64,000 nt of DNA from a virus: positions 32,001 through 96,000 of the IMG/VR virus record IMGVR_UViG_3300031950_000001; one strand, written 5' to 3'. A model generated the notes under the pieces. The model did no database searches. It had not been told where the DNA came from and saw nothing but the letters and a program-made list of their open reading frames with translations. The position numbers and the translations under genes are program-made. Positions 4,298 to 62,259 of the stretch are shown piece by piece; the first letter of the stretch is position 1, and each line of letters begins with the position of its first letter.

Positions 4298-4503
4298 GAA
4301 CGGGAATACTGATAACGATCAAAATTTTGATTCCGGAATCAAATTTCGATGATGGTTCCGGAATACGCCAATGGTGCGGGCTGATATAGCCCGTTTTTCG
4401 TGGTCTTGGCCGTGAGAGTATTAGGTCAACCTGATTAAGTTATTCATCTCGGCGCCAAATGCGCACAAATTCATGTTAATACTCGATTTTCGTACCGGCC
4501 GAT
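4298..4503 (+). repeat. Intergenic direct repeat R2, copy 1
   Basis: Near-identical to about 5928-6135. Includes the 18-bp palindrome and the first 10 leader codons. Confidence 0.85.
4326..4343. repeat. Dispersed palindrome TTTGATTCCGGAATCAAA
   Basis: Exact 18-bp palindrome, intergenic. Confidence 0.95.
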
Positions 4504-4607
4504 ATAACAGAATTCAGCCCGAAGGCTACGATCCAGATCCCGTAGACTACCAAGCTGCTAGCCAAGCTGCTATAATAAAATCTGTACCGTCCAAACCGAC
4601 GAAGTGA
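4473..4607 (+). pseudogene. Deleted or chimeric leader-family A remnant
   Basis: MLILDFRTGR is fused directly to GYDPDPVDYQAA (compare GYDPDVLDFQVA in 5155-5922). 44 aa. Confidence 0.7.
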
Positions 4608-4696
4608 TAGAGTTGTTTAAGCAGGCTAACGTCGGAGAGATTCAAAGGGCTATAGAAATCCGTTTTCCCTTTTAACTGAATCACCCTAGAAAGGAG

Positions 4697-5144
4697 GTTA
4701 AAGCTGTTTTCAAATAACTAACTATACCGCTACAAACATACCAATAACACTTGACAAGAGACAAAGATGCGATATACTAATTGGTAAGGATTACCTGCTG
4801 GTCGACAGTGAAATAATCGAGGTTGACCGTCGTTCGGTATAGACACGGGCGTCAAGGCGTTAGCCGTTCTCTCAGATGGAAAGCGGTACGAGAACCAAGT
4901 ACTGCTACGCTCAAGACTGAGAAGTTGTCGACGCTACATCGACGGATATTTGAACGCCGCTCGGAACATTGAGCGGGAAGCGTTACGTTTGATCAACAGA
5001 GGCCGGAGTGGGTTCACGGACTCTCTAAACGGACGTGGACAGGACGTAAGACCCTTCGGGGCAGTCCTGGATGAAACGTCAAAATTGGCTGAAGAAAGGC
5101 AGCCTTCCATTCCTGCCGTGGTTTAGGCAGGTTTGGTAAACCAG
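4697..5144 (+). mobile_element. Complete non-autonomous IS607 derivative (448 bp), inserted at GGAG in the RBS of 5155
   Basis: Left end GTTAAAGCTGTTTTCAAAT and right end ...GGTAAACCAG match the full element. tnpA and most of tnpB are deleted. Confidence 0.92.
4751..4778 (+). promoter_or_regulatory. sigma70-like promoter in the left end of the IS607 derivative
   Basis: TTGACA-16 bp-TATACT. Confidence 0.6.
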
Positions 5145-5154
5145 GGTAACTATC

Positions 5155-5922
5155 ATGTTAATCCTTGACTTTCGCACCGGCAAAATGACGAAACTGGCGT
5201 TAGACTTTGGTGATGTTGCGTCCGTGGCGATACCGGGGGCGTTGTTGGGTCTCGGTGGTGTGGGGCTCGGTAGTCTAATTGATATGCTAGCCGGCACTAA
5301 ACGTCGATGGACCACGATTCTTGGTCTGACAGGACTGGCCGGAGGTGCGGGGCTTGGAGGATTGGGTCGATATCTGTATAAGCGCGATCCTACATATCAG
5401 ACGTTTGTGTTCCTAGATAAGGCATTCACGCCGGCGACTGAGTCGGATGTGCAGAAGAAGTTCGGTAACAACCCAGACGCGATTGCGGCGCACCAAACCC
5501 GAATCAATAACATGACGCCGACCGAACTGATTAATAGTCTTATCGAACCAATGTACAAGGACTTTTGGGGGTATGACCCGGATGTTCTCGATTTCCAAGT
5601 TGCCCGCTATCTCGTTTCTAAACAGGCCGATAACGCGAAATTAACCGCACTTAATATCGCCGTGGATATAGCGGTACGAGGTCGGTTGCTTTCGCGGTAT
5701 CAGAAACGGATTCCGGAGGATTTACGGCCAGAAATAGAGAAACACTTTATGAACTATGCGCGCGAAATGACCAATCAGTTCGCAAGTGCGAATCCAAATT
5801 GGGAAGTGCCTAAATCGCATCTTCAGACGTTGGTAGGGTTACTCGTGGCGACGAATCAAGAAGAGGTCGAAAAACTTGCGAAGCTAGTCGCAAATCCATA
5901 TAGCGTTCGGGATCAATCATAA
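5155..5922 (+). CDS. Leader-family A protein
   Basis: Starts MLILDFRTGKMTKLA, then glycine zipper. Confidence 0.85.
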   Translation: MLILDFRTGKMTKLALDFGDVASVAIPGALLGLGGVGLGSLIDMLAGTKRRWTTILGLTGLAGGAGLGGLGRYLYKRDPTYQTFVFLDKAFTPATESDVQKKFGNNPDAIAAHQTRINNMTPTELINSLIEPMYKDFWGYDPDVLDFQVARYLVSKQADNAKLTALNIAVDIAVRGRLLSRYQKRIPEDLRPEIEKHFMNYAREMTNQFASANPNWEVPKSHLQTLVGLLVATNQEEVEKLAKLVANPYSVRDQS

Positions 5923-5958
5923 AAAAACGAACGGGAATATTGATCGGTATCAAAAAAT

Positions 5959-5976
5959 TTTGATTCCGGAATCAAA
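5959..5976. repeat. Dispersed palindrome TTTGATTCCGGAATCAAA
   Basis: Exact copy, within repeat R2 copy 2. Confidence 0.95.
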
Positions 5977-6918: not shown

Positions 6919-6945
6919 CGGTCGAATCCTGCCGTCTTTGTGAAA

Positions 6946-6963
6946 TTTGATTCCGGAATCAAA
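6946..6963. repeat. Dispersed palindrome TTTGATTCCGGAATCAAA
   Basis: Exact copy. Confidence 0.95.
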
Positions 6964-7000: not shown

Positions 7001-7285
7001 ATGCGAATTGTACTCGACAATAAAGAATTTGAATGTAAGAAGTTCGTCGTATTCGACAAGTTTGGCAACGCGGTCGCTGCCGGATATGATCATGCTGATG
7101 TCCTCGTGTTTGATACATGTGCCGGCCCCGATTTTCCGAAAATTCTCTCCATTGTTGGCTATCCAGATCGTCTTCCAACACAGATCATTGATACAAAACC
7201 ATTAATACCGGAGCTTTCTCCTATCAAGCCTGACACAGGTGCCGACCATGCAGGAAACGACCATTGGACAACTCTTAATTTCTAG
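7001..7285 (+). CDS. Hypothetical protein
   Basis: 94-aa ATG ORF filling the gap before the RNAP gene and overlapping its start. Confidence 0.55.
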   Translation: MRIVLDNKEFECKKFVVFDKFGNAVAAGYDHADVLVFDTCAGPDFPKILSIVGYPDRLPTQIIDTKPLIPELSPIKPDTGADHAGNDHWTTLNF

Positions 7286-9089
7286 TACCCTGCCGTCGGA
7301 TATTAAGCTTCCTGACGAAATCACAAAGAAGACGATCAATAGTTTCTATGGGGAGCTTGCTCGCAAATACCCCGATCGCTACGGCGAAATTACGAAAAAG
7401 TTAAATCAAATTGCCGTTCAGGCCCTTTATTCCAATGACGGCGCCTCGTTTAGCCTAGATGATCTTCGACCTCTTCCTTCTTCTTACTCTTATAGACCGG
7501 TTATTCTAAAAGAGATCGAGCAGATCGCGTCCAGCAAATTGCCGGATCGCGAAAAGCGCAAAAAAATCGCCGACGCCATTCTTCGTCATTCGCAAAATCT
7601 CCTTCAACTCACGCAAGACGAGGCCAAAGCCGCGAATAATCGATTCTACGAATATGTCTATTCCGGCGCTCGCGGTAATCCCGCCCAGCTTAAGCGGCTT
7701 ATTACGGGGGATACGGCCTACTTTGACCCCTCTGGAGAGGTAGTACCCTTCCCCGTTTTATCTGCGTATTCGGCAGGAGTACCTCCCGCAGAGTTTTGGG
7801 CTGCCTGCTATGGCGCCAGGAAGGGGCTAGCGGATACAAAGCTGGATGTAGCCAGAAGCGGTTATCTTGCCAAGCTTCTCAACCGTGCTACCCATCGGCT
7901 TGTTGTTATCGGCCACGACGCCAAAACAAAAACTCCTTATCCCATTGGTCTTCCTGTAGAGACTCAAGACCCTGATAATATCGGCGCATTTCTCGCACTT
8001 CCGGCAGGAAGATGGCCTGCCGGTACGGAGATAACACCGGCCGTTTATGAAGATCTAAAACGAGACGGTATCAAAAAGATCGTCGTTCGGAGTCCCATTG
8101 CCAGCCCTGCTGTTGATGGAATCTATGCCGTCGATGCCGGAATCCGCGAACATGGTCGTCTCCCCGAAATCGGTAGCATTCCTGGCATGGCGGCGGCCCA
8201 AGCAATCGGCGAACGACTAGCACAGACGTCCTTGAGCTCGAAGCATCTGGGAGGCGTTGTGAAGTTTAGCGGCTTTAGAGTGCTAGAACAGATGCTTAAT
8301 GTTCCGAAATTCTACGTTGGCGGCGCCATTCATAGCCAGGTCGACGGAAAAGTTCGATCTATAGACAAAAATGAAATTGGTCAATGGCGAATTGTAATCG
8401 GAGAACAAGAACATCTAGCACCTCCGTCCCATAAACCCATCGTCAAAGAGGGCGACGTTGTCGAAGCCGGAGACATACTAACGGAGGGTTTGCCCAACCC
8501 GGCAGAGGTAGTAAAGCACAAAGGGGTTGGCGAAGGACGTAGGGCATTTGTTAAAATGTTTTATGAGGCGATGCGTGACGCTGGTCAGCCGGTCCATCGT
8601 CGTAATGTCGAGCTTTTAGCCCGAGGTCTTATCGATCACGTTATTATAACCCAGCCGTTTGGGGGGTTCTATCTCGATGAAATCGTACCCTATGGCGAGG
8701 TTGCTAAGCGATGGACCCCCCGAAAGGGTAGTGTTCGAGTTCCTGTCGACAGCGCGTTAGGCTACTATCTTGAAGTACCCGTTCTTCACTACACGATAGG
8801 GACAAAGATAAAGCCTTCGGTTATCAAAGAGCTTAAAGAGGCGGGAATCAAAGATATTATCGTTCATAGCGATCCGCCTCCGTTTGAGTCATATATGGTT
8901 CGTGCAGCATCTTCGCTTGAGTTTGATCCCAACTGGATGACACGGTTGTTCGGCTCGAACCAAATTCGGGCCTTATTAAGCGCCGTCCGTCAAGGCGCTA
9001 CAGGTGAAATCTACGGTACTAGCTTTGTTCCTGCAAAAGCAATCGGGATTCCGTTGGGGCAGTGGATACGTGGAGTTGTAAATCGCTAA
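7239..9089 (+). CDS. Phage multisubunit RNA polymerase, beta'-like C-terminal half (split rpoC homolog)
   Basis: Has SGARGN, a bridge-helix-like GARKGLADT..SGYL, a trigger-loop-like AAQAIGERLAQ..SKH, sandwich-barrel VKEGDVVEAGDILTEG, and HRRNVELLAR. No NADFDGD catalytic motif. Confidence 0.9.
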   Translation: MPTMQETTIGQLLISSTLPSDIKLPDEITKKTINSFYGELARKYPDRYGEITKKLNQIAVQALYSNDGASFSLDDLRPLPSSYSYRPVILKEIEQIASSKLPDREKRKKIADAILRHSQNLLQLTQDEAKAANNRFYEYVYSGARGNPAQLKRLITGDTAYFDPSGEVVPFPVLSAYSAGVPPAEFWAACYGARKGLADTKLDVARSGYLAKLLNRATHRLVVIGHDAKTKTPYPIGLPVETQDPDNIGAFLALPAGRWPAGTEITPAVYEDLKRDGIKKIVVRSPIASPAVDGIYAVDAGIREHGRLPEIGSIPGMAAAQAIGERLAQTSLSSKHLGGVVKFSGFRVLEQMLNVPKFYVGGAIHSQVDGKVRSIDKNEIGQWRIVIGEQEHLAPPSHKPIVKEGDVVEAGDILTEGLPNPAEVVKHKGVGEGRRAFVKMFYEAMRDAGQPVHRRNVELLARGLIDHVIITQPFGGFYLDEIVPYGEVAKRWTPRKGSVRVPVDSALGYYLEVPVLHYTIGTKIKPSVIKELKEAGIKDIIVHSDPPPFESYMVRAASSLEFDPNWMTRLFGSNQIRALLSAVRQGATGEIYGTSFVPAKAIGIPLGQWIRGVVNR

Positions 9090-9117
9090 AAAATTTGATT
9101 CCGGAATCAAATTTTTT
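9088..9117. repeat. Dispersed palindrome, extended to a 30-bp perfect palindrome
   Basis: AAAAAATTTGATTCCGGAATCAAATTTTTT, overlapping the RNAP stop codon. Confidence 0.95.
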
Positions 9118-9130: not shown

Positions 9131-9985
9131 GTGAATATCAGAAAACTCGACCTTGGGCGATCGAATCGCGCGCTAAACGCCGTGGAAGCCAGGATTCGTT
9201 GCCTTATTAAGACCGCCCAAACATCGGAAGAAAAAGATACGCCTTGGATGAAGCTACTGAACTATCTGCAAAGTAAGCCAATACTGGTACCATTTTTGCG
9301 AATGAAGCTTAACAGTCTTGACATGGAACAAAATGAACGTCAAAAGCTTCTGGATTCTATTGCCAAATATGGACTGTTTAAAGTTGTAGACGAGGAGGTT
9401 CTCAACAGTATGGTTGACGCTCTATACAAGAATAATCAGTTAAAAGATAAATTCGTGAAGGCCGTGCGGGCCAGCGATAGTCTGCCCGAAGGTGCGAAAA
9501 CCGCGTTGTTAGATGCGCTTGAATGGCGCCTGAACCAAATGCGTCAGCAACAAAATCGAACGCAGCCCGCGCAACAAGATATGTTGCAACCTGGTCCGTC
9601 ACAGCCACAGCCAGCGCAAGATGTCGAGAAGCGTCTTCAGTTGATGATGCGTGGTTTCGATACGGATTTCTATTACGATCCCGTCGGATCGTGTTACTGG
9701 CTACGCTATCGTAATGGGCTGTGGATCGGGTTTGTGCCTGCGGTTCCAGATAGCTCAAGACGTCTTACGGTCGTAGAGGATTCGAAACATGTAACTACCT
9801 ATCGCGACAACGCTACAGGCCATCATTGGGTACAACTTCCGAACGACCAATGGTACATAGTTAGTATCCCAATGCGGCAACCTAGCTATACTCAGTTTGA
9901 TCCGCAAAAAGCTTTGGGGCCACTGCCAGGAGCTAAGTCGACTCAACCAAACATCCAACAGCCTGTCCTTACGCAGCCAAAATAA
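9131..9985 (+). CDS. Leader-family B protein
   Basis: Starts MNIRKLDLGRSNRALNAVEARIRCLIKTAQ. Has Gln/Pro-rich linkers. Confidence 0.8.
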   Translation: MNIRKLDLGRSNRALNAVEARIRCLIKTAQTSEEKDTPWMKLLNYLQSKPILVPFLRMKLNSLDMEQNERQKLLDSIAKYGLFKVVDEEVLNSMVDALYKNNQLKDKFVKAVRASDSLPEGAKTALLDALEWRLNQMRQQQNRTQPAQQDMLQPGPSQPQPAQDVEKRLQLMMRGFDTDFYYDPVGSCYWLRYRNGLWIGFVPAVPDSSRRLTVVEDSKHVTTYRDNATGHHWVQLPNDQWYIVSIPMRQPSYTQFDPQKALGPLPGAKSTQPNIQQPVLTQPK

Positions 9986-10052
9986 ACACAAAACCGTCGA
10001 GAAACGTAACGCACGTAACGTCGGGTCGCATTTGATTAAGGAAATTGAAAAA

Positions 10053-10070
10053 TTTGATTCCGGAATCAAA
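10053..10070. repeat. Dispersed palindrome TTTGATTCCGGAATCAAA
   Basis: Exact copy. Confidence 0.95.
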
Positions 10071-10088
10071 ATTTTGAGGTCGCTGTCG

Positions 10089-11021
10089 ATGAACGTCCGA
10101 AAGCACTATTTAGGTCGATCGAATCGTAACTTAAACGCACTCGAAGCCAGGATTCGTCTTCTTATTAAGAGGGCCCAACGGTTTGATCTAGACGAAATGC
10201 GGAACACTTTAGTGACACGTCTGGCACAGCAACGTTGGAGAATAACTGACTTCCTCCGTAATCTTGTGGCAAACGACGCAATCAGCAAGGAGGATGCTCA
10301 AAGACTTTTGAACTATCTTACGAATACATATAGATTTTATGGTACTGACCTTGTAAATCGCAAGGTTATTGATGTCATAATGGATTTCATGCAAAGACAA
10401 TCGCCCGAGAGCCAAAGGGCGTTTATCGCCGGTCTGGAGAAGTTGATGTCCAATTTAATTGGCATGCCGCCAAATGAGCAAGAGAACGTGTTAGATATGG
10501 TTCGTCAAGGCATATCGCCCAGCCAGCCGGATCAACAAAGCCTGCTGGATCGACAGGATCAGCCGCAGATCGGGGAGCCTCTCACCATGATTCCGCTTGG
10601 TCAGAATCGATGGCTCTTCCTAAGCAAAAACAGAGCCGATGCGGCTTGGATGGGAGGTCCGAACAAATACTTGACCCCAGTCGATCACCAATATGTGGTT
10701 GAGCTGTTGAAACAACAGCCAAACCTAAGGAAACAAGCCAAGAATGTTATTTTTGAGTATCGTTCGCCATATCACCCTGTATACTTCGTTCGCGAGCAAG
10801 CTACTGGAAAGTCGTTTTCGATACCTTCGGAGGAACAAATTCGCCAATACCTTCCTGGCTACACGCCTCAACAGCCGACTCAGCAAAATATGCAGCCGTT
10901 TGCCCCTAGACCAACTCAGCAAAATACGTCGCCGTTTGCCCCTGAGACGATGCAACCACCTATTCCTGGACGGACTCAACAACGGCCAAATGCTGGAAAA
11001 CGTGGCGCTCCGTCTTATTAG
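10089..11021 (+). CDS. Leader-family B protein
   Basis: Start reassigned to ATG 10089 (GAGG RBS) by homology: MNVRKHYLGRSNRNLNALEARIRLLIKRAQ. Confidence 0.8.
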   Translation: MNVRKHYLGRSNRNLNALEARIRLLIKRAQRFDLDEMRNTLVTRLAQQRWRITDFLRNLVANDAISKEDAQRLLNYLTNTYRFYGTDLVNRKVIDVIMDFMQRQSPESQRAFIAGLEKLMSNLIGMPPNEQENVLDMVRQGISPSQPDQQSLLDRQDQPQIGEPLTMIPLGQNRWLFLSKNRADAAWMGGPNKYLTPVDHQYVVELLKQQPNLRKQAKNVIFEYRSPYHPVYFVREQATGKSFSIPSEEQIRQYLPGYTPQQPTQQNMQPFAPRPTQQNTSPFAPETMQPPIPGRTQQRPNAGKRGAPSY

Positions 11022-11052
11022 TCACAAAACGATAGTTGAAAAACGAGATTTT

Positions 11053-11070
11053 TTTGATTCCGTAATCAAA
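11053..11070. repeat. Dispersed palindrome, one mismatch (TTTGATTCCGTAATCAAA)
   Basis: 17 of 18 bases match. Same position upstream of a family B gene as the other copies. Confidence 0.9.
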
Positions 11071-11087
11071 TCTTGAGGGCTCGACCA

Positions 11088-13376
11088 ATGAACGTCAGAA
11101 ACCTCTATTTCGATCGATTAAATCGTAAATTAAACGCAATCGAGGACAGTATTCGTCTTGTAAAGAGGGCGCAAGGAGCTGACCAGAAGGACCCATGGAA
11201 AATTTTGGATAGCTATCTAAAGGCGCATGAGATGAAGGTAAGGGACCTGCTCGATAAGGTCCAGCAGAAATACGGGCAAACCGGCGCGACAATGCTTCAG
11301 CGATTTCTTGAAAATAACGGGATCAAGCCCGACACTTCCTTATCTTCGGATCTTACGCAGAAAATTCTTAACCTTATACGATCGAAACAAGAGTACAAAT
11401 TCGCTCTTGACGCCGTGCCTGCTATAGTGGATGCGTTGTTGAAGGACATGCCGAAAAATGAACGAAAGATCGTGACAAATGCGGTTAAAGCGCATATATC
11501 CGCTCCGCAGACCAGACAGCCAGCTCAACAGCCAGCTCAACAGAACGCCGCACAGCCAAGTCCGCAGGCTCAACAAACGCAAAAGGCTAGGGAGCGCCTT
11601 GTTCCAGTTCAGCTTTCGCCGGACGGAAAGGGCGGCGTCTATCACGACCCAGAAACGGGCTATTATTGGGCACTTTTTCCAGATGAAAGAAAGGTCTGGG
11701 TCTCCCCAGACGAAATGGCGAAGACGATAAACGCTAGGGAAATGAGCAAAAATCGACCTTGGTTCCAGCAGATTATGTCAAATCCGCACTATACGGATAG
11801 GAGCAAAGTCCTCGAAGATCAAGGAATGACAGAGGACGCAGAGCGAATGTTCAAGTTTCATCTCCAACAATTTGCGCCCAGGAGCTTTGATCCGAATCGG
11901 ACGGCGCTACTACGCGCCCGAGCGGCGGAGTTTGCAGAGGTTCGCGACGGTAAAAAGGTTATAACAGGCAATAGCGTAAAAGCCGCAATAGTGGCAGATT
12001 ACCTAATACAGCGTGGTAGGGGTTTGGCACATGAAGACGAGGTGTTTAGAAATCCTGCTACAGCGGGCTGGCCGACCAATATGCCGCCGCGTACGAAAGA
12101 ACAACAGGCGAAGCGCATAGCCGAATCGGTTACGAGCTCGGTAGAGCGCTTTGAAGATATTCGAAATACGCTTCTTGGTCTGTCACCTGAACTTCGCCTA
12201 CGGGTTTGGAGTTCGCTTCCGAAGGAGACTCGACAGCAACTGCTAAAAGCGTATAGAGACTTGGATTATAAAACATTTGGCCGCGGTTACATCGAGGAAA
12301 GATGGAAGAGAATAAAATCGGATATAGTGAAATGGGGGATTATACCAGTCCCGCCCGAGCAGAAACCGCCAGAAGGGCCCCCGCCCGAGCAGAAGCAGCC
12401 TCCAGCGCCCCCGCCGAATCCGTTCGACGAGCCCCAGCCAGAGCAGAAGCAGCCTCCAGTACCTCCGCCAGAGCAGAAGCAGCCTCCAGTGCCTCCGCCG
12501 ACGCCCGAGCAGAAACCGCCAGAAGGGCCCCCGCCCGAGCGGAAGCAGCCTCCAGCGCCTCCGCCACCTGCTGACCAATCGTATGCCCTAACGTATCCCT
12601 TTGCGCCTCGCGAGCCAGGCACAATTGGATCAGTTGGTGAACAGATTACTGTACCGCCGTCGCTCTTATCGGGGTGGCCAGAGTCGAACAAGCCTGCCTT
12701 TCCGAATTATCCGTATAGAGTAGTAGAATCGAATCCCACTGAAGGGCTTGGTCTGCCTAACGCCTTAACGCAGCCGCAAAAACCCTTATCACAGATATTT
12801 GAGTCTACACTCGGTCCTTTGCCGCCCCCGTCGAACAAGCCTACCGTTCCGAATTACCCGTATCGAGTCGTAGAATCGAATCCCACTGAAGGGCTTGGTC
12901 TGCCTAACGCCTTAACGCAGCCGCAAAAACCCTTATCACAGATATTTGAGTCTACACTCGGTCCTTTGCCGTCTGAGTCGAAGAAGACGCCTGCACCAAC
13001 GTATCCCTTTGCATCTCAAACACCGGGCACAATTGGATCAGTTGGGGAACAGATTACTGTGCCGCCGTCGCTCTTATCGGGGCGGCCTGCGTCGAATGCC
13101 AGCCTATCTGGTCTGCCTGCTGCTGGGCAATCGTCCGCACCAACGTATCCCTTTGCATCTCAAACACCGGGCACAATTGGATCAGTTGGGGAACAGATTA
13201 CTGTGCCGCCGTCGCTCGTATCGGGGTGGCCAGAGTCGAATGCCAGCCCGTTTGGTTCGCCTGCTGCTGGTCGGCCATCCATACCGACGTATCCATATTC
13301 GCCTCTAGAATCGAGTCCACCAGGAACGATTGGTCGACCGAGCGTTATACCACCTGCGCTACCGCTAATTTATTGA
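11088..13376 (+). CDS. Leader-family B protein with long Pro-rich repeat tail
   Basis: Starts MNVRNLYFDRLNRKLNAIEDSIRLVKRAQ. Has PEQKQPP repeats and approximately 47-49-aa tandem repeats. Confidence 0.85.
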   Translation: MNVRNLYFDRLNRKLNAIEDSIRLVKRAQGADQKDPWKILDSYLKAHEMKVRDLLDKVQQKYGQTGATMLQRFLENNGIKPDTSLSSDLTQKILNLIRSKQEYKFALDAVPAIVDALLKDMPKNERKIVTNAVKAHISAPQTRQPAQQPAQQNAAQPSPQAQQTQKARERLVPVQLSPDGKGGVYHDPETGYYWALFPDERKVWVSPDEMAKTINAREMSKNRPWFQQIMSNPHYTDRSKVLEDQGMTEDAERMFKFHLQQFAPRSFDPNRTALLRARAAEFAEVRDGKKVITGNSVKAAIVADYLIQRGRGLAHEDEVFRNPATAGWPTNMPPRTKEQQAKRIAESVTSSVERFEDIRNTLLGLSPELRLRVWSSLPKETRQQLLKAYRDLDYKTFGRGYIEERWKRIKSDIVKWGIIPVPPEQKPPEGPPPEQKQPPAPPPNPFDEPQPEQKQPPVPPPEQKQPPVPPPTPEQKPPEGPPPERKQPPAPPPPADQSYALTYPFAPREPGTIGSVGEQITVPPSLLSGWPESNKPAFPNYPYRVVESNPTEGLGLPNALTQPQKPLSQIFESTLGPLPPPSNKPTVPNYPYRVVESNPTEGLGLPNALTQPQKPLSQIFESTLGPLPSESKKTPAPTYPFASQTPGTIGSVGEQITVPPSLLSGRPASNASLSGLPAAGQSSAPTYPFASQTPGTIGSVGEQITVPPSLVSGWPESNASPFGSPAAGRPSIPTYPYSPLESSPPGTIGRPSVIPPALPLIY
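12349..13250 (+). repeat. Intragenic tandem repeats
   Basis: CCCGAGCAGAAGCAGCC units, a 147-bp duplication near 12683/12830, a 141-bp duplication near 12995/13136, and three copies of PGTIGSVGEQITVPPSL. Confidence 0.85.
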
Positions 13377-14340: not shown

Positions 14341-14428
14341 AAAATTTTTGATTCCGGAATCAAAAATTTTTGGTTTATCCCCCTATATAGGGGGTTATCG
14401 CTAAAAATTTGATTCCGGAATCAAATTT
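14341..14428. repeat. Two dispersed palindromes (cores 14347-14364 and 14408-14425) flanking CCCCCTATATAGGGGG (14379-14394)
   Basis: Three palindromes within 90 bp. The first extends to 30 bp perfect. Confidence 0.92.
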
Positions 14429-18423: not shown

Positions 18424-19779
18424 ATGTCGGTCAAAAAGCTAACATCCGAAACCAAGGAAAAGATCGCGCATATTACCAGCGAGCTTGTCGACAGCGTCGA
18501 GATGGGCGAAGACCCGAAGGCAGCCGCCATTAAGCTCGCCAAAGCGTACGATCTGACAAAAGATCAAATCCGAATGGTCGTTCGAGCCTATAATACGGCG
18601 GCATCGTTGGCCCAGCTAGAGGAATTTGACAAACGAGCCGAAGTTCCACGCGTCATTAACGCAGAAGCGGTTGTCAAAGCTGTCTTTGGAGGCAAGCGGA
18701 CCAAGGTCGCAAGCCAAGAAGTACAAGAAAAGCCGCAAGTGGTTTCCTCCGACTGGTCTCTTCCCGTACAAGCGGTGGTCCGAACTGATACGCCGATTCG
18801 TACCAGCCGTATCATCAAGTTCGCGACAGTTGACCGTCCTAAGCCGGAACCGAAAGATAACACTCCGTTTCTTGCTCAACAAGCTCGCAAAGAAGCGGCT
18901 GTTGTAAAGCTGGCCGCAGAACGTCGTTTCGTCGACGCGATTCAGCAGCTTGCGGAATATTTTTCCGTAACTGGAGCAATTGATCCGAAAATTGCGGAAC
19001 AGAACGCGGTTGCGGCTTTTGGTAAAGATAGTAAAACGATCATCAAATCAGCCCTTGATTTTGCAGGACTAAAGAAAAAACCCATTTATTCTAATAACCC
19101 TGTTTTTGATCCGCAAAAGCCCCCTTACAATCTAATCAAACAGGCCGTTGATGCCTGCAATGACTATCTGCAGGCCGTTAAGACCGAAAAGCTGGCCGAT
19201 GAAGTTGCTCCAAAGAAGAAAAAGCTCGATCTTGCCAACCTCCGGAAGCCGATCTACGGAACGATCTTTCCCGAACTTGAGCCCGAACGTTGGCAGACCA
19301 TCTTTCCTGAATTAGAGTTTGGAAAGGAGGCCGCAGCCAAGACCGGAATTAATATATCTCCGTTTGGACCGACCGCGCAGACGTTGGCCCTTGGTTTAGG
19401 GGAAGTGTTCGGTCATCCTCGAGAATCGGTTGTTAAACCGACCGACGTTACGATGAATATTGAGGCTACAACATTACGAACAAAGAGCTACCTTATTCAT
19501 TTGATGGCCAATGACCCTGTTATAAGCAAATATCCGCCTGAAGAGGTGGTTAAAGTTTATAACGCCCTTAGTCGTCTAGCGCCGAGAGCAATGCAGCAGC
19601 CGAACGTAATTGTTATGTACCTTCGGATTGCACTACAGTCTGGAGGCTCGTTGGATAATTTCCACACCAATTCGCTTGTGGCGATAAATCGCGAATTAGA
19701 CCGGGTAGCGACGGGAATTTCATCCGGCGCATTTTCGCTCGCCGAACGCGGCACGGGCGAATCAGAGGAGGCCGCATAA
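18424..19779 (+). CDS. Probable prohead core protein (K-x-A rich)
   Basis: ATG at 18424. Repeated KIA, KAA, KLA, KRA, KVA, KFA, KEA and KQA. Confidence 0.7.
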   Translation: MSVKKLTSETKEKIAHITSELVDSVEMGEDPKAAAIKLAKAYDLTKDQIRMVVRAYNTAASLAQLEEFDKRAEVPRVINAEAVVKAVFGGKRTKVASQEVQEKPQVVSSDWSLPVQAVVRTDTPIRTSRIIKFATVDRPKPEPKDNTPFLAQQARKEAAVVKLAAERRFVDAIQQLAEYFSVTGAIDPKIAEQNAVAAFGKDSKTIIKSALDFAGLKKKPIYSNNPVFDPQKPPYNLIKQAVDACNDYLQAVKTEKLADEVAPKKKKLDLANLRKPIYGTIFPELEPERWQTIFPELEFGKEAAAKTGINISPFGPTAQTLALGLGEVFGHPRESVVKPTDVTMNIEATTLRTKSYLIHLMANDPVISKYPPEEVVKVYNALSRLAPRAMQQPNVIVMYLRIALQSGGSLDNFHTNSLVAINRELDRVATGISSGAFSLAERGTGESEEAA

Positions 19780-20125: not shown

Positions 20126-21583
20126 ATGGCGACTGATCCTATAAAGCTGATACGGCGACATCGCATAAAACACGCCGCGGAGCCGGCCGGGCCTGCTGAT
20201 CAAAGTGAACCGACGCTACAGGTCGGGCCTCCAGCCCCAAGGAACCTCGGGCCAGAACCGCCGCCTGATGCGCCTGCCTCGGGCGCTGCACCGCCGACGG
20301 GCGTGCGCGGATTTATGGATGCAGTCGTCCCGCCCGCTCTCGCATTAGGTGCGACAGGGATATTAATTGGAACATTATTTGATCGAAAACACGGGCTTTT
20401 TGCAGGAACGACGGCGGCATTAGGGCTTCTGGGAACGGCTATTGGCGCTGGTTGGGGTGCTTTGCAAGCCGGCGGCGGCACCGGCGGCACTGGTGGTCTT
20501 TCAGATGTTATGATACGCGGCATTGGGCGTATGTTTGGCTTCGGCGACCAGTCAGGAGAGCCTTCACAAGGGTGGGGAGAAAGTCTAGCCCCGTGGGTTC
20601 GATGGTTGTCGCCAGTTGGTGGCGGTGGTGTCGGTTTTTTCCTTGGAAGCGGCCTCGGTAGCCGTCTATATAAACGATTCGCCTATCCGCGCGGGCTAAA
20701 GAAATTCAATTTATATATACCCCATCCGACGCACGTACGACGATTTGATTCATTTATCGATATGGTAATAGATACATTGCAAAGTCGCGGGGCCGTACTA
20801 AAGCACGCTATAGATAGGCTTAACAATAAGGCGTCATTACTTGTTGACCAAGCTAAGCAACTAGATCAGCTGTTGCGCGCGCGAATTCAGACTAAGATGA
20901 AAGGGATGTCCGATTTAGCATACCGCGTAACAAGTCAGAAGGAGCCATTATACGAACATGCGATATCGCAAAAAACCGTAGTGCGGCAACAACCCGTATT
21001 CGAGTCGCCTGTGTTAATAACGAACAACGCAACGCTTGTAAGCGACGCTTTGGCGGCAAACAAAGAAGTACGACTCAGAATGGCGACACGCGAGTTCTTG
21101 TCTTGTCTTGGGCCTGGGGATATTAATCCATTAGAGTTCGAAAAGTGTAAAGATGTTCTAAAAGCGATTGCAAAAGACCACGGGCTCGAAGGAAGCGAGA
21201 AAAGAATTTTCGACAGTGCGAGTGATCAAATAGCGGCTGCACGTAGAAGTTGGTTCCGGAACAGGACTGATGCAGAGGCGCTTGAACACGCAAAACAAAG
21301 TATCGACGTTGGTCGCGCCGAAAGGACTGCGCAGAAGCGTCTCAGCAAAGCACTTCGCGCTCTTGAGCAGCAACTCGATGCGACCGCCCGCGATATCAGC
21401 GTGCTTGAGCGGTGTAAGCGACGCTTGCCCAACATAAAGTCTCCGCCAAAATGGCCCGGATGGACAGGTGGCTTGGGTGTGGGGGCGGCAGGCGTGGTGC
21501 TGGGTGAATTCGCTGGTCCGTTGGTGGCAGATTGGCTTATGCCTCCGCATCCCGTGCGCTCTCTACAACAACCTATAGATTAG
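20126..21583 (+). CDS. Glycine-zipper-containing probable internal virion protein
   Basis: Basic N-terminus ending in KHA, a Pro-rich linker, several GxxxG hydrophobic helices and a coiled coil. Confidence 0.7.
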   Translation: MATDPIKLIRRHRIKHAAEPAGPADQSEPTLQVGPPAPRNLGPEPPPDAPASGAAPPTGVRGFMDAVVPPALALGATGILIGTLFDRKHGLFAGTTAALGLLGTAIGAGWGALQAGGGTGGTGGLSDVMIRGIGRMFGFGDQSGEPSQGWGESLAPWVRWLSPVGGGGVGFFLGSGLGSRLYKRFAYPRGLKKFNLYIPHPTHVRRFDSFIDMVIDTLQSRGAVLKHAIDRLNNKASLLVDQAKQLDQLLRARIQTKMKGMSDLAYRVTSQKEPLYEHAISQKTVVRQQPVFESPVLITNNATLVSDALAANKEVRLRMATREFLSCLGPGDINPLEFEKCKDVLKAIAKDHGLEGSEKRIFDSASDQIAAARRSWFRNRTDAEALEHAKQSIDVGRAERTAQKRLSKALRALEQQLDATARDISVLERCKRRLPNIKSPPKWPGWTGGLGVGAAGVVLGEFAGPLVADWLMPPHPVRSLQQPID

Positions 21584-21730
21584 TTTTCGCGTTTACATTG
21601 TGCGCATTCAAGCATAATATACGAGGCGGGAACGGGCGCTTGCCGTTATCGTTCGTCTTATAACAGCTGCTAGGCGTCGAATCTCTCGGTGGGTAGATTC
21701 TAGTAAATTCGGAAGAGCCGAAAGATACCC

Positions 21731-23137: not shown

Positions 23138-23164
23138 AAAATTTGATTCCGGAATCAAATTTTT
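23137..23164. repeat. Dispersed palindrome (core 23142-23159)
   Basis: 28-bp perfect palindrome at the protease stop codon. Confidence 0.95.
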
Positions 23165-23193
23165 AAGAGTAGCTGTGTTGGGTGTTTCTTATA

Positions 23194-23202
23194 TGCTATA
23201 AT
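23194..23202 (+). promoter_or_regulatory. Extended -10 promoter for the scaffold/capsid operon
   Basis: TGCTATAAT about 50 bp upstream of GGAGGAG-ATG. Confidence 0.55.
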
Positions 23203-23251
23203 AAAAAATTGAAAAACGAGCGTTTCGCGGATTTCATTTGGAGGAGCAAAT

Positions 23252-24460: not shown

Positions 24461-24478
24461 GCAGAGGAGACATCAAAT

Positions 24479-24859
24479 ATGGCAGACATTGTAAAATATG
24501 CCGAAGCTCTTCAGCTCGTTGTCCGCGAGCTTGCCAATCGAGCCAGTGGCTACGTCGAAAAGCAAGCTGCCGTGACGAAACGAGTTCCGGAGGTGATTGA
24601 TACCCTTGTCGCGAACTCGTTTATCACGGTTAACCAAAAAGACGTGGCGGCAAAACTCTTAAGCACACACGAAGGTAGCCTCGAAATTATCGAGCGGATG
24701 GCTAAAAAGGCAAGCGTTCGCCAATCTGGCGTTATTGGTGAAGCCGTAGGCGGTAGTTCCAGCACTCCTATCCGCCGAGTGGCCGTGGATCATATTCCTC
24801 GAATTGAGGATCTCCCGGCTGCGCAGGAGTTTGCTCAGCGGATTTTGTCTCGCGCATAA
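24479..24859 (+). CDS. Small head-assembly protein
   Basis: 126 aa with KYA, KQA and KKA, in the head operon. Confidence 0.7.
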   Translation: MADIVKYAEALQLVVRELANRASGYVEKQAAVTKRVPEVIDTLVANSFITVNQKDVAAKLLSTHEGSLEIIERMAKKASVRQSGVIGEAVGGSSSTPIRRVAVDHIPRIEDLPAAQEFAQRILSRA

Positions 24860-24900
24860 CGGTACATTAGACGAAAAACTCTAAGAAGGAGATTAAAACG

Positions 24901-25527: not shown

Positions 25528-25577
25528 TTCAGTCTGAGCAACTTAACTTCAACTAAGAATATAAGGAGACAGAGACT

Positions 25578-28564: not shown

Positions 28565-28582
28565 TTTGATTCCGGAATCAAA
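28565..28582. repeat. Dispersed palindrome TTTGATTCCGGAATCAAA
   Basis: Exact copy immediately after a stop codon. Confidence 0.95.
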
Positions 28583-35496: not shown

Positions 35497-35498
35497 AG

Positions 35499-35514
35499 TT
35501 GATTCCGGAATCAA
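35499..35514. repeat. Dispersed palindrome (16-bp core TTGATTCCGGAATCAA)
   Basis: Immediately after a stop codon. Confidence 0.92.
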
Positions 35515-35584
35515 ATTTCCTTAAAAACGTACATATTCTAGCGAAACGGTAATGTCGTTAGTCTGTCAAAAAGGGGACTATTCT

Positions 35585-39015: not shown

Positions 39016-39044
39016 AATTTGATTCCGGAATCAAATTTTAGGCG
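39009..39044. repeat. Dispersed palindrome, longest copy (36-bp perfect)
   Basis: CGCCTAAAATTTGATTCCGGAATCAAATTTTAGGCG. Confidence 0.95.
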
Positions 39045-47465: not shown

Positions 47466-47497
47466 TCCGGCGGCGTTTTTTTAGCTATTAGGCAATT

Positions 47498-47515
47498 TTT
47501 GATTCCGGAATCAAA
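47498..47515. repeat. Dispersed palindrome TTTGATTCCGGAATCAAA
   Basis: Exact copy. Confidence 0.95.
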
Positions 47516-52334: not shown

Positions 52335-52352
52335 TTTGATTCCGGAATCAAA
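52335..52352. repeat. Dispersed palindrome TTTGATTCCGGAATCAAA
   Basis: Exact copy. Confidence 0.95.
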
Positions 52353-52777: not shown

Positions 52778-54043
52778 CTAAACCACGGCAGGTTTGGTAG
52801 GCTGCCTTTCTTCAGCCAATTTTGACGCTTCATCCAGAACTGCCCCGAAGGGTCTTACGTCCTGTCCACGTCCGTTTAGAGAGTCCGTGAACCCACTCCG
52901 GCCTCTGTTGATCAAACGTAACGCTTCCCGCTCAATGTTCCGAGCGGCGTTCAAATCCCTATCAGCGGTATACCCGCACTCACAAACAAACGTTCGGTCA
53001 CTCAGTGCCAAGTCTGATTTGACTACACCACACATTGGGCATAGCCGACTAGAGGGGAAGAAGCGGTCAACTTTTACCAATACGCCGCCGTACCACTCGG
53101 ATTTGTATCGTAACTGTCGTACAATCTCGCCAAGCCCAGCATCGGAGATTAGCAGGGCCATGCGGTGGTTACGCAGCATTCCGGCGACATTCAAATCTTC
53201 CACGCCGATAATCCGATAGGTGCGGGCGATCTCGGTCGTCATCTTGTGCAGATAATCCAACCGCTTGTTGGCTATCCGACGATGTAGCGTCGCCAACTTC
53301 TTCTTGGTGCGGTTCCAGCGACCGCTTCCCTCTTGTCGGCGGGATAGTTCGCGGCTCAGACGCTTTAACTTTCTCAGTCTTGAGCGTAGCAGCACTTGGT
53401 TCTCGTACCGCTTGCCATCTGAGAGAACAGCCAAAGTCCTGACGCCCACGTCTATCCCGACTGCCCCTTGTGGGTGCTTGTGTTCTGGTGGTTCGATTTC
53501 TACATTGACAGCAGCATACCAATGCCCTGCGTTCTCCGAAATAGTAACTGACTTGATTTCACCGTTAAACCTCAACACCTCGGCCATATTGATTGGTTTA
53601 TCTAACTTTTCCAACTTGAGCCAATGGCCGTCAATACGAACCCGTGTCCCGTCCATTCTGAAGGATAATTTGGATCGTTTCTTGGACTTGAACCTGGGAT
53701 AGCCCTTCTTAGTATCGCCATTCTTGCACCGGCGAAAGAACCTCGTGAATGCGTCATCAAGATTCCGAAAGCCAGTTTCTACAGCGCATTTAGAAACGTC
53801 CAGGGCCCAGGGGAACTGCTTGCGCTTGATGGCGTTGAATTGCCTTTTCAAGGTATAAGCTGATGGTTTCCTGCCAGCGGCATATTCTTTCTGCCACTCG
53901 GCCAAACCCCAATTGAAGGCAAATCTTGCCGTTCCGCAAGCCTTGCGCAGGTACTCGGTCTGTTGAGGCGTGGGATTAAGTCTGATTTTATGTGCTCGCT
54001 GCATCGGAGCTTTCCTTCTGCCTGCGCCCGCCTCGTGCTCCAT
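52778..54043 (-). CDS. tnpB: TnpB RNA-guided nuclease
   Basis: N-terminal HTH_OrfB-like region, RuvC D (GIDVG), E (VEDL) and D (DRDLNAA), and Zn finger CPMC...CECG. True start probably MQRAHK. Confidence 0.95.
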   Translation of the reverse strand: MEHEAGAGRRKAPMQRAHKIRLNPTPQQTEYLRKACGTARFAFNWGLAEWQKEYAAGRKPSAYTLKRQFNAIKRKQFPWALDVSKCAVETGFRNLDDAFTRFFRRCKNGDTKKGYPRFKSKKRSKLSFRMDGTRVRIDGHWLKLEKLDKPINMAEVLRFNGEIKSVTISENAGHWYAAVNVEIEPPEHKHPQGAVGIDVGVRTLAVLSDGKRYENQVLLRSRLRKLKRLSRELSRRQEGSGRWNRTKKKLATLHRRIANKRLDYLHKMTTEIARTYRIIGVEDLNVAGMLRNHRMALLISDAGLGEIVRQLRYKSEWYGGVLVKVDRFFPSSRLCPMCGVVKSDLALSDRTFVCECGYTADRDLNAARNIEREALRLINRGRSGFTDSLNGRGQDVRPFGAVLDEASKLAEERQPTKPAVV

Positions 54044-54599
54044 ATAACCGAGACGAAAAACTTACAATGATCGTCAGAATATCCTCAATCAACTCTTCGT
54101 GCTCGTTCTTCTCTTCCGCTTCTTCCAGAACTTCTACTCTGCAACCTACGCCATTGAAGAATCGCTCAATGGTTCGGAAACCAAAGCGGGTCAATCTATC
54201 TCGATGTTCAACTACAACCTTTTTGATTTTACCTTTGCAAGCCGCGTCTATGATCTTGAAGAACTGGCGGCGATTGTCGTTTAGACCAGAAGCAATCTCG
54301 GAACAGTCTAACACAATGCGATAACCGCGCTCCCTACAGGCTTCTATCAGCCTTTCATGCTGGCGGGTAAGATTCTCTACTTGCTTTTGTGTAGATACAC
54401 GAGCATACAAGGCTACGTCCTTCTCGGTTACAGTAACACCATCCGATATAGACAGGAGCTTTTCAATCTCGGCACTATCATAGCGACGATGCCCGCCAGC
54501 AGTACGGTGTTCAGTCAGCTTTCCATCCCTGAGCCACCGATGCAAGGTGGTCTTGGAGAGCCGATACTTCTGCTCGACTTCCGATTGCCTCAACAACAT
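53988..54599 (-). CDS. tnpA: IS607 TnpA serine recombinase
   Basis: MerR-like HTH (TLHRW..DGKL...RT.GGHRRY), YARVST, SGLN..R and DRL.RFG. Confidence 0.95.
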   Translation of the reverse strand: MLLRQSEVEQKYRLSKTTLHRWLRDGKLTEHRTAGGHRRYDSAEIEKLLSISDGVTVTEKDVALYARVSTQKQVENLTRQHERLIEACRERGYRIVLDCSEIASGLNDNRRQFFKIIDAACKGKIKKVVVEHRDRLTRFGFRTIERFFNGVGCRVEVLEEAEEKNEHEELIEDILTIIVSFSSRLYGARGGRRQKESSDAAST

Positions 54600-56337: not shown

Positions 56338-56355
56338 TTTGATTCCGGAATCAAA
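56338..56355. repeat. Dispersed palindrome TTTGATTCCGGAATCAAA
   Basis: Exact copy. Left flank ACCGCCTAAAA is shared with the 39009 copy. Confidence 0.95.
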
Positions 56356-60018: not shown

Positions 60019-60042
60019 CACGAGAATTCCGTTTATCCGCTC

Positions 60043-60088
60043 TTGACACGGACACCTCGACGGCATAGATTAGTCGAGGTGTTTTTTT
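60043..60088 (+). terminator. Terminator hairpin overlapping a sigma70-like promoter
   Basis: ACACCTCGAC/GTCGAGGTGT plus a T tract, overlapped by TTGACA-17-TAGATT. Confidence 0.65.
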
Positions 60089-60110
60089 GTCCCTGCTTGG
60101 AGGGTCTGTA

Positions 60111-61604
60111 GTGAAGGCACTAATCACGGTTGGAGGTCCTCTTATCTCTATCGCTGCCGATGAGCAGACGCCGCTTACCGGTTCGATCGTCGAAAAGATC
60201 ACCAAACCGCTCATCTTTACCAAGATTAAACTCAATTATCATCGAGGCAATCTCAACAAGCATCCGGAACGATGTGTTCTCTATCATGTTGACGAACAAG
60301 GTAAGATTTGGTGTCATCGTGGCTGGATCGACAAAATTCACCGTATGCTCTTGTCAGAGGGATATGAAGTTACTATAAAAGAGGATTGGCCGCCGCTGGC
60401 GCGACCCGACTGCTATACAGAAGATATCCAAGCGTTGGCAAATAGCCTCCAATTCCGGCCTAAACAGATTGAATGCATTGCGGCTTTGATCGCAAGAATT
60501 AGAGACCGACGAGGTGGTGTTGTTGTCGCTCCTCCAGCGTTTGGAAAGACAAAGCTCATCTCGGCGTTGTGCGTTCTCTATCCTAAGGCGAAGATCGATA
60601 TCATTACGCACGGTAACGAGCTCATTGAGGACCTTTATCGGCATGTTCTAAAGCTGACCCCGGACGTCGGTGTTATCGCCAAAGGAAGCTGCGACAAGCG
60701 TCGAGTAACGATTATCTCGGATATGAGTTTGAAGTATTCGGATGGAGACGCAGATATTGTATTGGCAGATGAAGTTCATAAACTCATGACGGATCGTGCG
60801 GTGAAGGAATTGGCAAGATACGATCACGCGTGTATGTTTGGATTTACGGCTACGCCCGACACACGGCTGGATAATGCCCATCGCCGAATGGAGGGGCTAT
60901 TTGGTCCAGTGATCTTTCAGGTCGATTGGGAAGAGGCTGTCCGGCTCGGGGTCGTTGTTCCCATTCACGTCTATATGCTTCATATCGATTCCGGTGTTCC
61001 GGTATCGAAATATTACCGCAGCCAAATTAGTATGAAACGCTTTGCGTATTGGCGAAATACGGTTCGTAATCGCCGAATTGCCGAAGCCGCCCGAAACTTT
61101 GTTAAAGCTGGGCTTCAGACCCTCATCCTAGTTGAAACCGTTGAGCATATGGTGTATCTTAAGGAGCTCCTTCCCGAATTTCAGGTCTGCTACAGCAACA
61201 TGAATTTAGACCGTCCGGCCATGAAATTCCTTCGAAGCCGCGGATTGCTGGAGAATGTTCCAAAACTTTCTTACCGCGATCGAATGGACGTCAAAGCGCG
61301 ATTCGAGAATCGTGATATAATGGGTTGTATCGCCACTACAATTTGGACGCAGGGTGTTAGCTTCGATAGTCTTCAGGTTCTTATCCGTGCTGATGGCGGC
61401 TATAGCGAGACCAATAACCAACAATGGCCTGGCCGCGTCGCCAGAATTGATCCGAAAACCAATAAATCGTATGGTATTCTGGTAGATTGCTTCGACGAGT
61501 TCGATGTTTGGACCAAGGCCAGGTCTTTCGCTCGCCTCAGGAGCTATCGCAGCAATGGCTGGCAAATCTCCCATCATCGGCCCAGTGAAACGCCTACCTT
61601 CTGA
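60111..61604 (+). CDS. Superfamily 2 helicase (UvsW/XPB-like)
   Basis: RPKQ, APPAFGKT, DEVH, TAT and Q..GRV.R motifs. GGAGG RBS before GTG 60111. Confidence 0.9.
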   Translation: MKALITVGGPLISIAADEQTPLTGSIVEKITKPLIFTKIKLNYHRGNLNKHPERCVLYHVDEQGKIWCHRGWIDKIHRMLLSEGYEVTIKEDWPPLARPDCYTEDIQALANSLQFRPKQIECIAALIARIRDRRGGVVVAPPAFGKTKLISALCVLYPKAKIDIITHGNELIEDLYRHVLKLTPDVGVIAKGSCDKRRVTIISDMSLKYSDGDADIVLADEVHKLMTDRAVKELARYDHACMFGFTATPDTRLDNAHRRMEGLFGPVIFQVDWEEAVRLGVVVPIHVYMLHIDSGVPVSKYYRSQISMKRFAYWRNTVRNRRIAEAARNFVKAGLQTLILVETVEHMVYLKELLPEFQVCYSNMNLDRPAMKFLRSRGLLENVPKLSYRDRMDVKARFENRDIMGCIATTIWTQGVSFDSLQVLIRADGGYSETNNQQWPGRVARIDPKTNKSYGILVDCFDEFDVWTKARSFARLRSYRSNGWQISHHRPSETPTF

Positions 61605-62259
61605 AATTCTTGCCACTTCGACGGTTCAAGCAAAGAATGAATTCGATCTCGAAAAGATAATCCGTGACTGCTATGTTGCAAATCGAAAGTATTACGTCGG
61701 CGATAGTCAATCCAAGTACGGAGATACGCAGACCCGATGGGACATGCCGTCCAGGAAGGACGGCCTTACCACCTGGGGCCGAATAGCTCGATTTCTTATC
61801 GAACATAATATCGATGATGTTCATCGCTATGTTCACGCCCAGTTTGCTGCCAGCGATAATCCAGCTGCACTCTACCCTCCATTTCTCATCGGCGGGAATG
61901 CCCTCAAAGCCTATCATGAGTACAATAGTACTGCGGATGAACGGCTAAGGTCGAGTCTTCATGCGGAGATCTCTCGATTTAGAACGGAAGTTGTCTTAAA
62001 CTCGAAGCCAGGTATGACTACGGAAGAGTGTTGGCGGTTTGTTTTGATGAATTCGGGCAATAGTATTTCGCCGCTCTTGCGTTATCTGTGTGCTGTCGAT
62101 ATTGGAGCTATGGATTTGGCGAAGTTTTGGTATGACGCTGCTATGTTGCAAGTCATCATGGATCCACGCGGATATATCCGCGTATGGGACGATTGTTTCA
62201 ACGGGCGTATCAAAACGTTGATTACCGGGGCCGGAATTTTGATTCCGGAATCAAAATAA
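61585..62259 (+). CDS. Hypothetical replication-module protein
   Basis: Lies between the two helicases. Start uncertain. Confidence 0.65.
   Translation: MKRLPSEILATSTVQAKNEFDLEKIIRDCYVANRKYYVGDSQSKYGDTQTRWDMPSRKDGLTTWGRIARFLIEHNIDDVHRYVHAQFAASDNPAALYPPFLIGGNALKAYHEYNSTADERLRSSLHAEISRFRTEVVLNSKPGMTTEECWRFVLMNSGNSISPLLRYLCAVDIGAMDLAKFWYDAAMLQVIMDPRGYIRVWDDCFNGRIKTLITGAGILIPESK
62238..62255. repeat. Dispersed palindrome inside the last codons of a CDS
   Basis: Exact copy encoding ...LIPESK, directly before the RBS of the DnaB-like gene. Confidence 0.95.

Follow-up and report, generated by a model that had tools for sequence, protein, structure and literature searches.

An invariant palindrome dispersed along the gene borders of a polymerase-encoding phage, and its concerted change in a sister phage

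The stretch of phage DNA analysed here (hereafter the window; 64,000 nt, G000:C1:32001-96000, that is, positions 32,001 to 96,000 of IMG/VR record IMGVR_UViG_3300031950_000001) is punctuated by an 18-bp palindrome without a loop, TTTGATTCCGGAATCAAA. A syntenic sister phage carries, at many of the same positions, a version of the palindrome that differs by one symmetric pair of bases. It is very probable that the palindrome is real and under selection, and that it is recognised by a trans-acting factor which is specific to its sequence and co-evolves with it. As to the identity of this factor, a dimeric DNA-binding protein of the phage is tentatively preferred over a factor that would read a hairpin in the message.

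The two phages amount to an unusually clean natural experiment, in which positions and flanking genes are the same and every copy has been switched, the intragenic one included, and this makes the reader protein findable. Its identification would show how a phage with its own cellular-type RNA polymerase (RNAP) marks the borders of its transcription units, a matter on which nothing is known for the polymerase-encoding clade of Caudovirales (PMC7481178) to which we take this phage to belong.

The palindrome and its switch in place

A search of the window for TTTGATTCCGGAATCAAA with up to two mismatches returned 16 sites, 14 of them exact and two with one mismatch, where 100 dinucleotide-preserving shuffles lead to an expectation of 0. 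All 16 positions listed in a preliminary description of this DNA proved to be correct, including the two imperfect ones (an internal G to T at 11053, and an exact 16-bp core with an outer T changed to G at 35498/35499), and the closeness to stop codons that it had pointed out holds at 9089, 23137, 28562, 35496 and 39015. The whole record (G000; 144,055 bp) contains 38 copies of the 16-bp core TTGATTCCGGAATCAA, of which 33 are exact and five have one mismatch, and nearly all of them fall within the approximately 9% of the genome that lies outside a crude set of open reading frames (ORFs). The consensus, aAAAW-T-TTGATTCCGGAATCAA-A-WTTTt, is strand-symmetric both in its core and in its average flanks, the latter being A-rich on the 5′ side and T-rich on the 3′ side. 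The extension of the symmetry by A/T flanks is real, as had been noted, and whole palindromes span 16-36 bp. One copy was said to lie within coding sequence, and this is the case of the copy at 62238, with which a conserved ORF of 251 aa ends (its last six codons). By contrast, no coding sequence contains the copy at 10053, which lies 18-20 nt 5′ of the true start of the gene that follows it, like the copies in front of its two paralogues.

The sister phage (G001; IMGVR_UViG_3300020153_000001, 135.5 kb, 94% complete) is syntenic with G000 at 65-74% nucleotide identity. It possesses 30 exact copies and one variant copy of TTGACTCCGGAGTCAA and none of the G000 version, just as G000 has no copy of TTGACTCCGGAGTCAA. 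The two versions are distinguished by the change of T5 to C and the symmetric change of A12 to G, and the next flanking base is likewise symmetric, with TT...AA in G001 and mostly AT...AT in G000. When orthologues were defined by reciprocal best hit (91 pairs, median identity 61%), both orthologous flanking genes were found to be shared with a G001 site at 10 G000 sites, which occupy eight gene junctions, two of them with tandem pairs; one flanking orthologue is common for about seven further G000 sites. Sites have also been gained and lost between the two phages, e.g., the one at window 35498, which lacks a G001 partner. The switch extends to the coding copy: the 251-aa ORF is 55% identical in G001, and its C-terminus, ILIPESK in G000, reads ILTPESK... 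there and is encoded by the G001 version of the motif, so that the switch of the palindrome inside this ORF accounts for an Ile-to-Thr change. Since some 30 sites cannot independently drift to one new sequence, it follows that a sequence-reading factor changed and that the sites followed it. The preliminary description had considered that the retention of mere hairpin shape by relatives, with no retention of sequence, would speak against its reading. What the relative keeps is sequence, in the form of a symmetric two-base variant present in every G001 copy and at many of the same positions; given this lineage-specific sequence at orthologous positions, conservation of shape alone is therefore not what is found.

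The sites of the window and the two genes of most relevance to them are the following (window coordinates):

4326..4343: exact palindrome, 33 nt 3′ of the stop of ORF 3511-4293; GC-rich terminator-like hairpin about 50 nt downstream
5959..5976: exact palindrome in a duplicated context, near-identical to the surroundings of 4326
6946..6963: exact palindrome, 28 nt past a stop and 38 nt ahead of the next start
7239..9089, plus strand: gene of the RNAP beta′ C-terminal subunit (PF04998 in homologues), the marker used for finding relatives
9094..9111: exact palindrome, 5 nt past the RNAP beta′C stop; the orthologous G001 site, 86978, has the G001 version
10053..10070: exact palindrome; a paralogous gene has its ATG 19 nt downstream
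11053..11070: one-mismatch palindrome, G changed to T within the central CCGG
14347-14364 and 14408-14425: tandem pair of exact palindromes, centres 61 bp apart, with a GC hairpin between them
23142..23159: exact palindrome, 5 nt past a stop; orthologous G001 site 100615
28565..28582: exact palindrome, 3 nt past a stop; TTCCGGAA partner 56 bp downstream; orthologous G001 site 105893
35498..35515: palindrome with an exact 16-bp core and an outer T changed to G; no G001 site between the same two orthologous genes
39018..39035: exact palindrome, full palindrome of 36 bp; orthologous G001 site 116065, with a palindrome of 32 bp
47498..47515: exact palindrome, about 15 nt past a canonical terminator
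52335..52352: exact palindrome
56338..56355: exact palindrome
61504..62259, plus strand: conserved 251-aa ORF with the palindrome in its 3′ end
62238..62255: exact palindrome, coding; encodes the last six codons (ILIPESK*) of the conserved ORF

Tandem copies form four pairs in G000, with a spacing of 55-61 bp; the three pairs other than the one listed are 55-56 bp apart, and the degenerate partner TTCCGGAA is found exactly 56 bp from two further full copies. Three palindrome-spacer-palindrome modules of about 72 bp can be recognised in G000 (18602-18672, 109312-109383 and 138331-138402), whose spacers, of 39-40 bp, are homologous to one another and contain an inverted repeat of their own, TTACG...CGTAA; at two of these three places G001 has a single palindrome only. 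Three tandem paralogous genes occupy window 9131-13376 (starts near 9131, 10089 and 11091), with a palindrome 18-20 nt 5′ of each start, and the G001 counterpart of this stretch is one gene of 1,000 aa. The copy at 23142 is followed by a promoter-like box of the TGCTATAAT type and then by the next gene start, 93 nt past the palindrome.

The occurrence of such repeats is not confined to these two phages. Homologues of beta′C number in the hundreds at 40-55% identity, on contigs of 60-230 kb. One contig with a 55% identical beta′C (L018) contains three copies of a different word, TTAGTTAATATTAAC, which recurs nine times, seven of them exact, within 13 kb of IMGVR_UViG_3300026280_000013 (L081), where the copies fill the short space that separates a stop codon from the ribosome-binding site or ATG that comes next. 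The genes of L081 include a T4-type terminase, a portal and a capsid protein; it has no protein similarity to G000, and only one gene, of 59 aa, in common with L018. In most of 79 IMG/VR relatives (38-46% beta′C identity; about 22 kb read of each) a dispersed invariant repeat was not seen. A clear case among them is G002, a record that is 49% complete: its 97 kb contain GACAAAATCGATTTTGTC 17 times, always within a longer, GC-rich palindrome, of which the upstream TAG stop is often a part. The centre is thus self-complementary in three independent words: CCGG in G000, ATAT in L018 and L081, and TCGA in G002. Palindromes were what was looked for, which entails an ascertainment bias; an unbiased count of repeated 12-mers gave the same words. 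The palindrome habit is recurrent but patchy in the polymerase clade, and each lineage has its own word.

Duplex DNA or a folded transcript

A factor that reads sequence could do so in the transcript. According to this possibility, the palindrome would fold into a hairpin in the mRNA, which a phage factor or the phage RNAP would take as a termination, 3′-end-forming, processing or stabilising signal, which we consider unlikely although far from negligible. Several features of the sites are in keeping with it. In G000, the sites are found nearer the upstream stop in 19 cases and nearer the next start in seven, and the A-run before the motif and the T-run after it recall a bidirectional terminator. 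In G002, the extended stem includes the TAG stop and a T-rich tail is often present 3′ of it. Within the long blocks of genes punctuated by the palindromes, few canonical terminators occur. In G001, 11 sites are nearer the stop and 10 nearer the start, so that the site has no polarity there, and no U-tract is found either; the T-run after the motif is present in G000, absent from G001 and partial in G002. The preference for stop codons, real in G000 and absent in G001, is accordingly given little weight.

The stability of the putative hairpin is very low. In G000 its mean energy of -7.2 kcal/mol at 37 °C rises to -2.0 at 60 °C and to -0.4 at 70 °C, while that of the canonical terminators of the same genome lies between -12 and -22 kcal/mol at 37 °C; at 65-70 °C the palindrome is close to 0 kcal/mol, and the stable GC-rich hairpin that characterises intrinsic terminators is not what it offers. 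The existence of GC-rich terminators that are distinct from the palindrome and variable in sequence, put forward in the preliminary description, is borne out, and a plain terminator is disfavoured, the motif being both weak and invariant. Moreover, the gaps of L081 consist of the palindrome and a ribosome-binding site only. There, as in several gaps of G000 and G001, no room is left for a new promoter between the palindrome and the next gene, and an efficient unconditional terminator is therefore excluded at those places.

The symmetry of the element bears on the same question. Flank mismatches of the G.U type and of the A.C type are equal (16:16 and 17:13), and this equality, together with the strand symmetry of the motif, means that there is no sign of selection on a plus-strand RNA. 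Likewise, the centre is palindromic in all three versions, a property that is unneeded by a hairpin loop and that is explained by a two-fold symmetric protein on duplex DNA; the chance of a four-base loop being self-complementary is 1 in 16. A processing signal has a precedent in the 'hairpin rule' of the Mimiviridae, in which the 3′ ends of genes bear palindromes that are cut by a viral RNase III and whose sequence is unrelated between genes. The present case resembles it in that the virus has a multisubunit polymerase of its own and palindromes directly past stop codons, but the sequence is invariant here and a gene for RNase III was not found (PF14622).

Other observations weigh against a simple duplex site. 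The flanks of one and the same site pair beyond what is obtained after left flanks have been combined with randomly chosen right flanks: the mean extension is 3.64 against 2.99 in G000 (p = 0.01) and 2.87 against 2.55 in G001 (p = 0.037). The site at 39018 and its G001 orthologue are perfect palindromes of 36 and 32 bp, respectively, whose flanks differ in sequence and yet pair, and compensatory flank changes are found at some further orthologous or paralogous sites, as well as in some outer stems of G002. Such pairing flanks point to a folded hairpin or a cruciform, which simple duplex binding does not predict. In addition, all 11 of the 11 single-mismatch variants either fall in the central four bases or give plus-strand G.U pairs, so that the plus-strand hairpin is kept in every one of them, a pattern that fits an RNA hairpin as well as the uncontacted centre of a dimer site. 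On balance, the duplex-site reading is preferred to the RNA one by a small margin.

The putative reader and its mode of action

The explanation that we favour, on the strength of the sequence comparisons above and still tentatively, is that the palindrome may serve as the docking site of a dimeric phage DNA-binding protein, a genome-wide regulator or roadblock comparable to those that act at stoperators or at KorB operators. The reader would be a phage-encoded homodimer that contacts both nine-base half-sites (TTTGATTCC) of the duplex, and it would occupy the approximately 38 intergenic gaps to regulate transcription throughout the genome, as a roadblock, an insulator or a global repressor, its mode of action being modelled on the mycobacteriophage stoperators or the KorB operators.

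The KorB operators (OB) of plasmid RK2, as well as the sites of ParB and Noc, are loopless palindromes of 13-16 bp that are dispersed at variable distances from promoters and bound by a dimeric global regulator. The palindrome described here has in common with them the lack of a loop and the conservation through the centre, but a protein with a ParB_N domain was not detected in G000, G001 or G002. The sequence-specific, probably dimeric, reader suggested in the preliminary description is strongly supported by the switch in G001, while its parS/ParB version is not: the co-occurring ParB that was to be looked for (PF02195) has no match at E <= 0.01 in G000, G001, G002 or G003, in scans in which control genomes do score.

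Among phages, the nearest case in print is that of the Cluster O mycobacteriophages, whose 17-bp dyad repeat, TGTTCGGNNNCCGAACA, is present in 34 copies in Corndog and for which the authors predict a dimeric DNA-binding protein, its function being unexplained (PMC4351075). Genome-wide invariant phage palindromes have thus been in print since at least 2015 without an explanation. As in Cluster O, there are more than 30 dyad-symmetric copies per genome, with invariant arms, spread throughout it and mostly at positions common to relatives, in a phage that is not obviously temperate. The Cluster O repeat differs in having 7-bp arms around a variable 3-bp spacer and about one third of its copies within genes, whereas the present palindrome is spacerless, has an invariant centre and has one clearly coding copy; the lineage-wide symmetric switch between relatives is a feature of the present case. 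What this case adds is, therefore, the concerted switch in place at orthologous positions, the maintenance of an intragenic copy, and the setting, a phage with its own multisubunit polymerase. A second precedent is provided by the stoperators of Cluster A, at which a bound phage protein (gp71 of L5, the repressor of TipsytheTRex) stops transcription elongation (PMC9283540, PMC6550527). Cluster A and the present phages alike have dozens of short, invariant intergenic sites whose motif differs between relatives, in Cluster A along with the repressor. Stoperators are, however, asymmetric 13-mers oriented with transcription and read by a monomeric repressor in temperate phages, while the site is symmetric here and no lysogeny module was seen.

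When 139 small ORFs and the majority of the large ones were scanned against Pfam, few DNA-binding candidates emerged, namely a sigma factor, the TnpA of an IS607-type insertion and a winged-helix protein of 93 aa, the only conserved candidate of small size. The last of these, encoded outside the window at G000 125214-125495 and not adjoining a palindrome, is a weak candidate for the reader. Its identity between G000 and G001 is 46%, as compared with 82-83% for the RNAP subunits and 77% for the sigma factor, and the predicted recognition helix differs at four positions (SEATALRR in G000, SITTVQRR in G001), while the G000 helix is unchanged in variants that share 84-90% identity with the G000 protein. 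Its predicted fold is generic and MarR-like (pLDDT 74), with PDB matches only at Foldseek E > 0.001, and the search for homologues found only near-identical ones. Some facts count against this side of the proposal as well: the case for the winged-helix protein draws on two genomes, no homologue of the winged-helix protein was found in G002 (with the record 49% complete), and the phage has no integrase and no obvious lysogeny module, its only recombinase coming from the IS607-type insertion. The absence of an integrase and of a lysogeny module makes the role of a classical immunity repressor unlikely. As for the recombinase gene that was to be looked for alongside the motif, the sole one, that of TnpA, is missing from G001.

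The reader could also be conceived of more specifically, as one half of a termination or insulation system for the multisubunit RNAP of the phage, in which the polymerase would be halted or released by a dimer bound at every border between genes and the pair of site and reader would drift fast enough to make sister phages mutually unreadable. This version is quite unlikely. Bound proteins that stop or release a polymerase are known in eukaryotes, where mTERF, Reb1 and TTF-I act in this manner.

A different link with the polymerase would be that the palindrome is its promoter, or an essential element of it, and changes with the specificity factor like the promoters of T7-type phages. The density and invariance of the copies and their concerted change between relatives do resemble those of phage-polymerase promoters, and three lineages with this polymerase have invariant palindromes. 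Many sites of G001 and L081 lie 2-20 nt before a start codon, at eight G001 sites the GGAG of the motif is at ribosome-binding distance from the ATG, and both G000 and G001 have palindromes at a divergent gene junction. Nevertheless, the element and its flanks are symmetric even though nearly all genes run one way, so that such a promoter would fire equally in the antisense direction, and no conserved element exists at a fixed distance on either side, in contrast to the directional, fixed-start promoters of the T7 type. The next start may be as close as 2 nt or as far as 200 nt away, and other promoter-like boxes intervene; most of the 79 relatives with the same polymerase are devoid of such a repeat near the polymerase gene, and the RNAP subunits barely differ between G000 and G001. 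We consider this reading very unlikely. A sigma-70 promoter was rejected, given that TTGATT/TTGACT could act as a -35 box but no -10 element is found at 17 bp. A GCATTTAA box was also dismissed as a family-wide promoter of the polymerase, since its excess in distant relatives comes from a conserved coding motif, and in G000 it is no closer to the palindromes than expected by chance within intergenic DNA.

Finally, the palindromes might have no bearing on transcription and be joints of gene exchange, selfish repeats of the PeSL, REP or MITE kind, or sites used by a host factor, in replication or in packaging; their intergenic location would then merely reflect that an invariant 18-mer does not fit coding sequence. 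Taken together, these possibilities are very unlikely. In G000, palindromes are enriched at borders between conserved and replaced genes (17/56 against 17/111 junctions, p = 0.027), but this is not the case in G001 (7/47 against 23/97), and a role at mosaic boundaries, significant in one genome and absent in the other, was discarded; the support for recombination, one of the functions initially suggested, is inconsistent in this sense. The gain and loss of sites between the two phages could be ascribed to mobility, and so could the three homologous modules (~56 bp) and the degenerate partners at the same 56-bp spacing, which resemble copied units, or the presence of the L018 motif in L081, in spite of the lack of protein similarity of the latter to G000. 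Against this, the change in place at orthologous positions is unlike a mobile element. Neither RAYT (PF01797) nor ParB was found, the GTAG/CGTC head of the REP elements associated with RAYT is lacking, and the IS607-type TnpA/TnpB pair is not in G001. A serine recombinase site was discarded on the same grounds, the only resolvase being the TnpA of that element. A host genomic repeat was rejected too, as no stretch of bacterial genome with more than one copy was present among the matches listed.

Gene content and further sequence elements

The genome of G000 has direct terminal repeats of 1,741 bp and a G+C content of 49%, with nearly all genes on the plus strand. Its cellular-type RNAP comes in two pieces, a fusion of beta and beta′N (1,453 aa, G000 21574-25935) and the beta′C subunit (616 aa, window 7239-9089). 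The two RNAP genes of G000 are situated about 13 kb apart, with a palindrome 5-8 nt 3′ of each. Other products include a sigma-70-family protein, a family-A DNA polymerase fused to a UDG domain, a RecA-like protein, a LigD-like ligase, a gpA-type terminase and an SbcC-like ATPase. The IS607-type insertion lies on the minus strand at window 52778-54599 and comprises TnpA (53988-54599), a serine recombinase with a MerR-type helix-turn-helix, and TnpB (52778-54043), an OrfB_IS605 protein with a Cas12f-like TNB domain; the pair is absent from G001, where the helix-turn-helix of TnpA has no match.

A CsrA homologue (G000 5388-5618; PF02599, E = 1e-11) is conserved in G001. The palindrome was considered as a CsrA target in view of its GGA, and this was rejected because GGA is missing from the L018/L081 version and 18 invariant bases are more than CsrA requires. 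A restriction or methylation site was likewise rejected, as TCCGGA and CCGG are not avoided elsewhere in G000, and so was a solitary mimic of a CRISPR repeat (Racr, PMC10651486), given that asymmetric handles are missing and that 38 copies would be without precedent. No Rfam family has a match in the window. Two G000 proteins within 46-61664 match PF08960 (STIV_B116-like; best E = 8e-26), the family to which we take the viral ring nucleases of the AcrIII-1 type, enzymes that degrade cyclic tetra-adenylate, to belong.

Two further elements recur in intergenic DNA. A second box, GCATTTA(A/C)(A/T)AT(G/T)GG, is found in G000 29 times on the plus strand and three times on the minus strand, with about 20 intergenic plus-strand sites (e.g., window 39105 and 47544; G000 96985 and 126120), and is also carried by G001. 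A GC hairpin with a T-run is often located directly 3′ of it, an arrangement like that of a promoter with a promoter-proximal terminator or of a short RNA gene. In both G000 and G001, the word TTTTTTAGCTA(T) recurs just 3′ of GC-rich terminator hairpins, e.g., at window 47470-47490.

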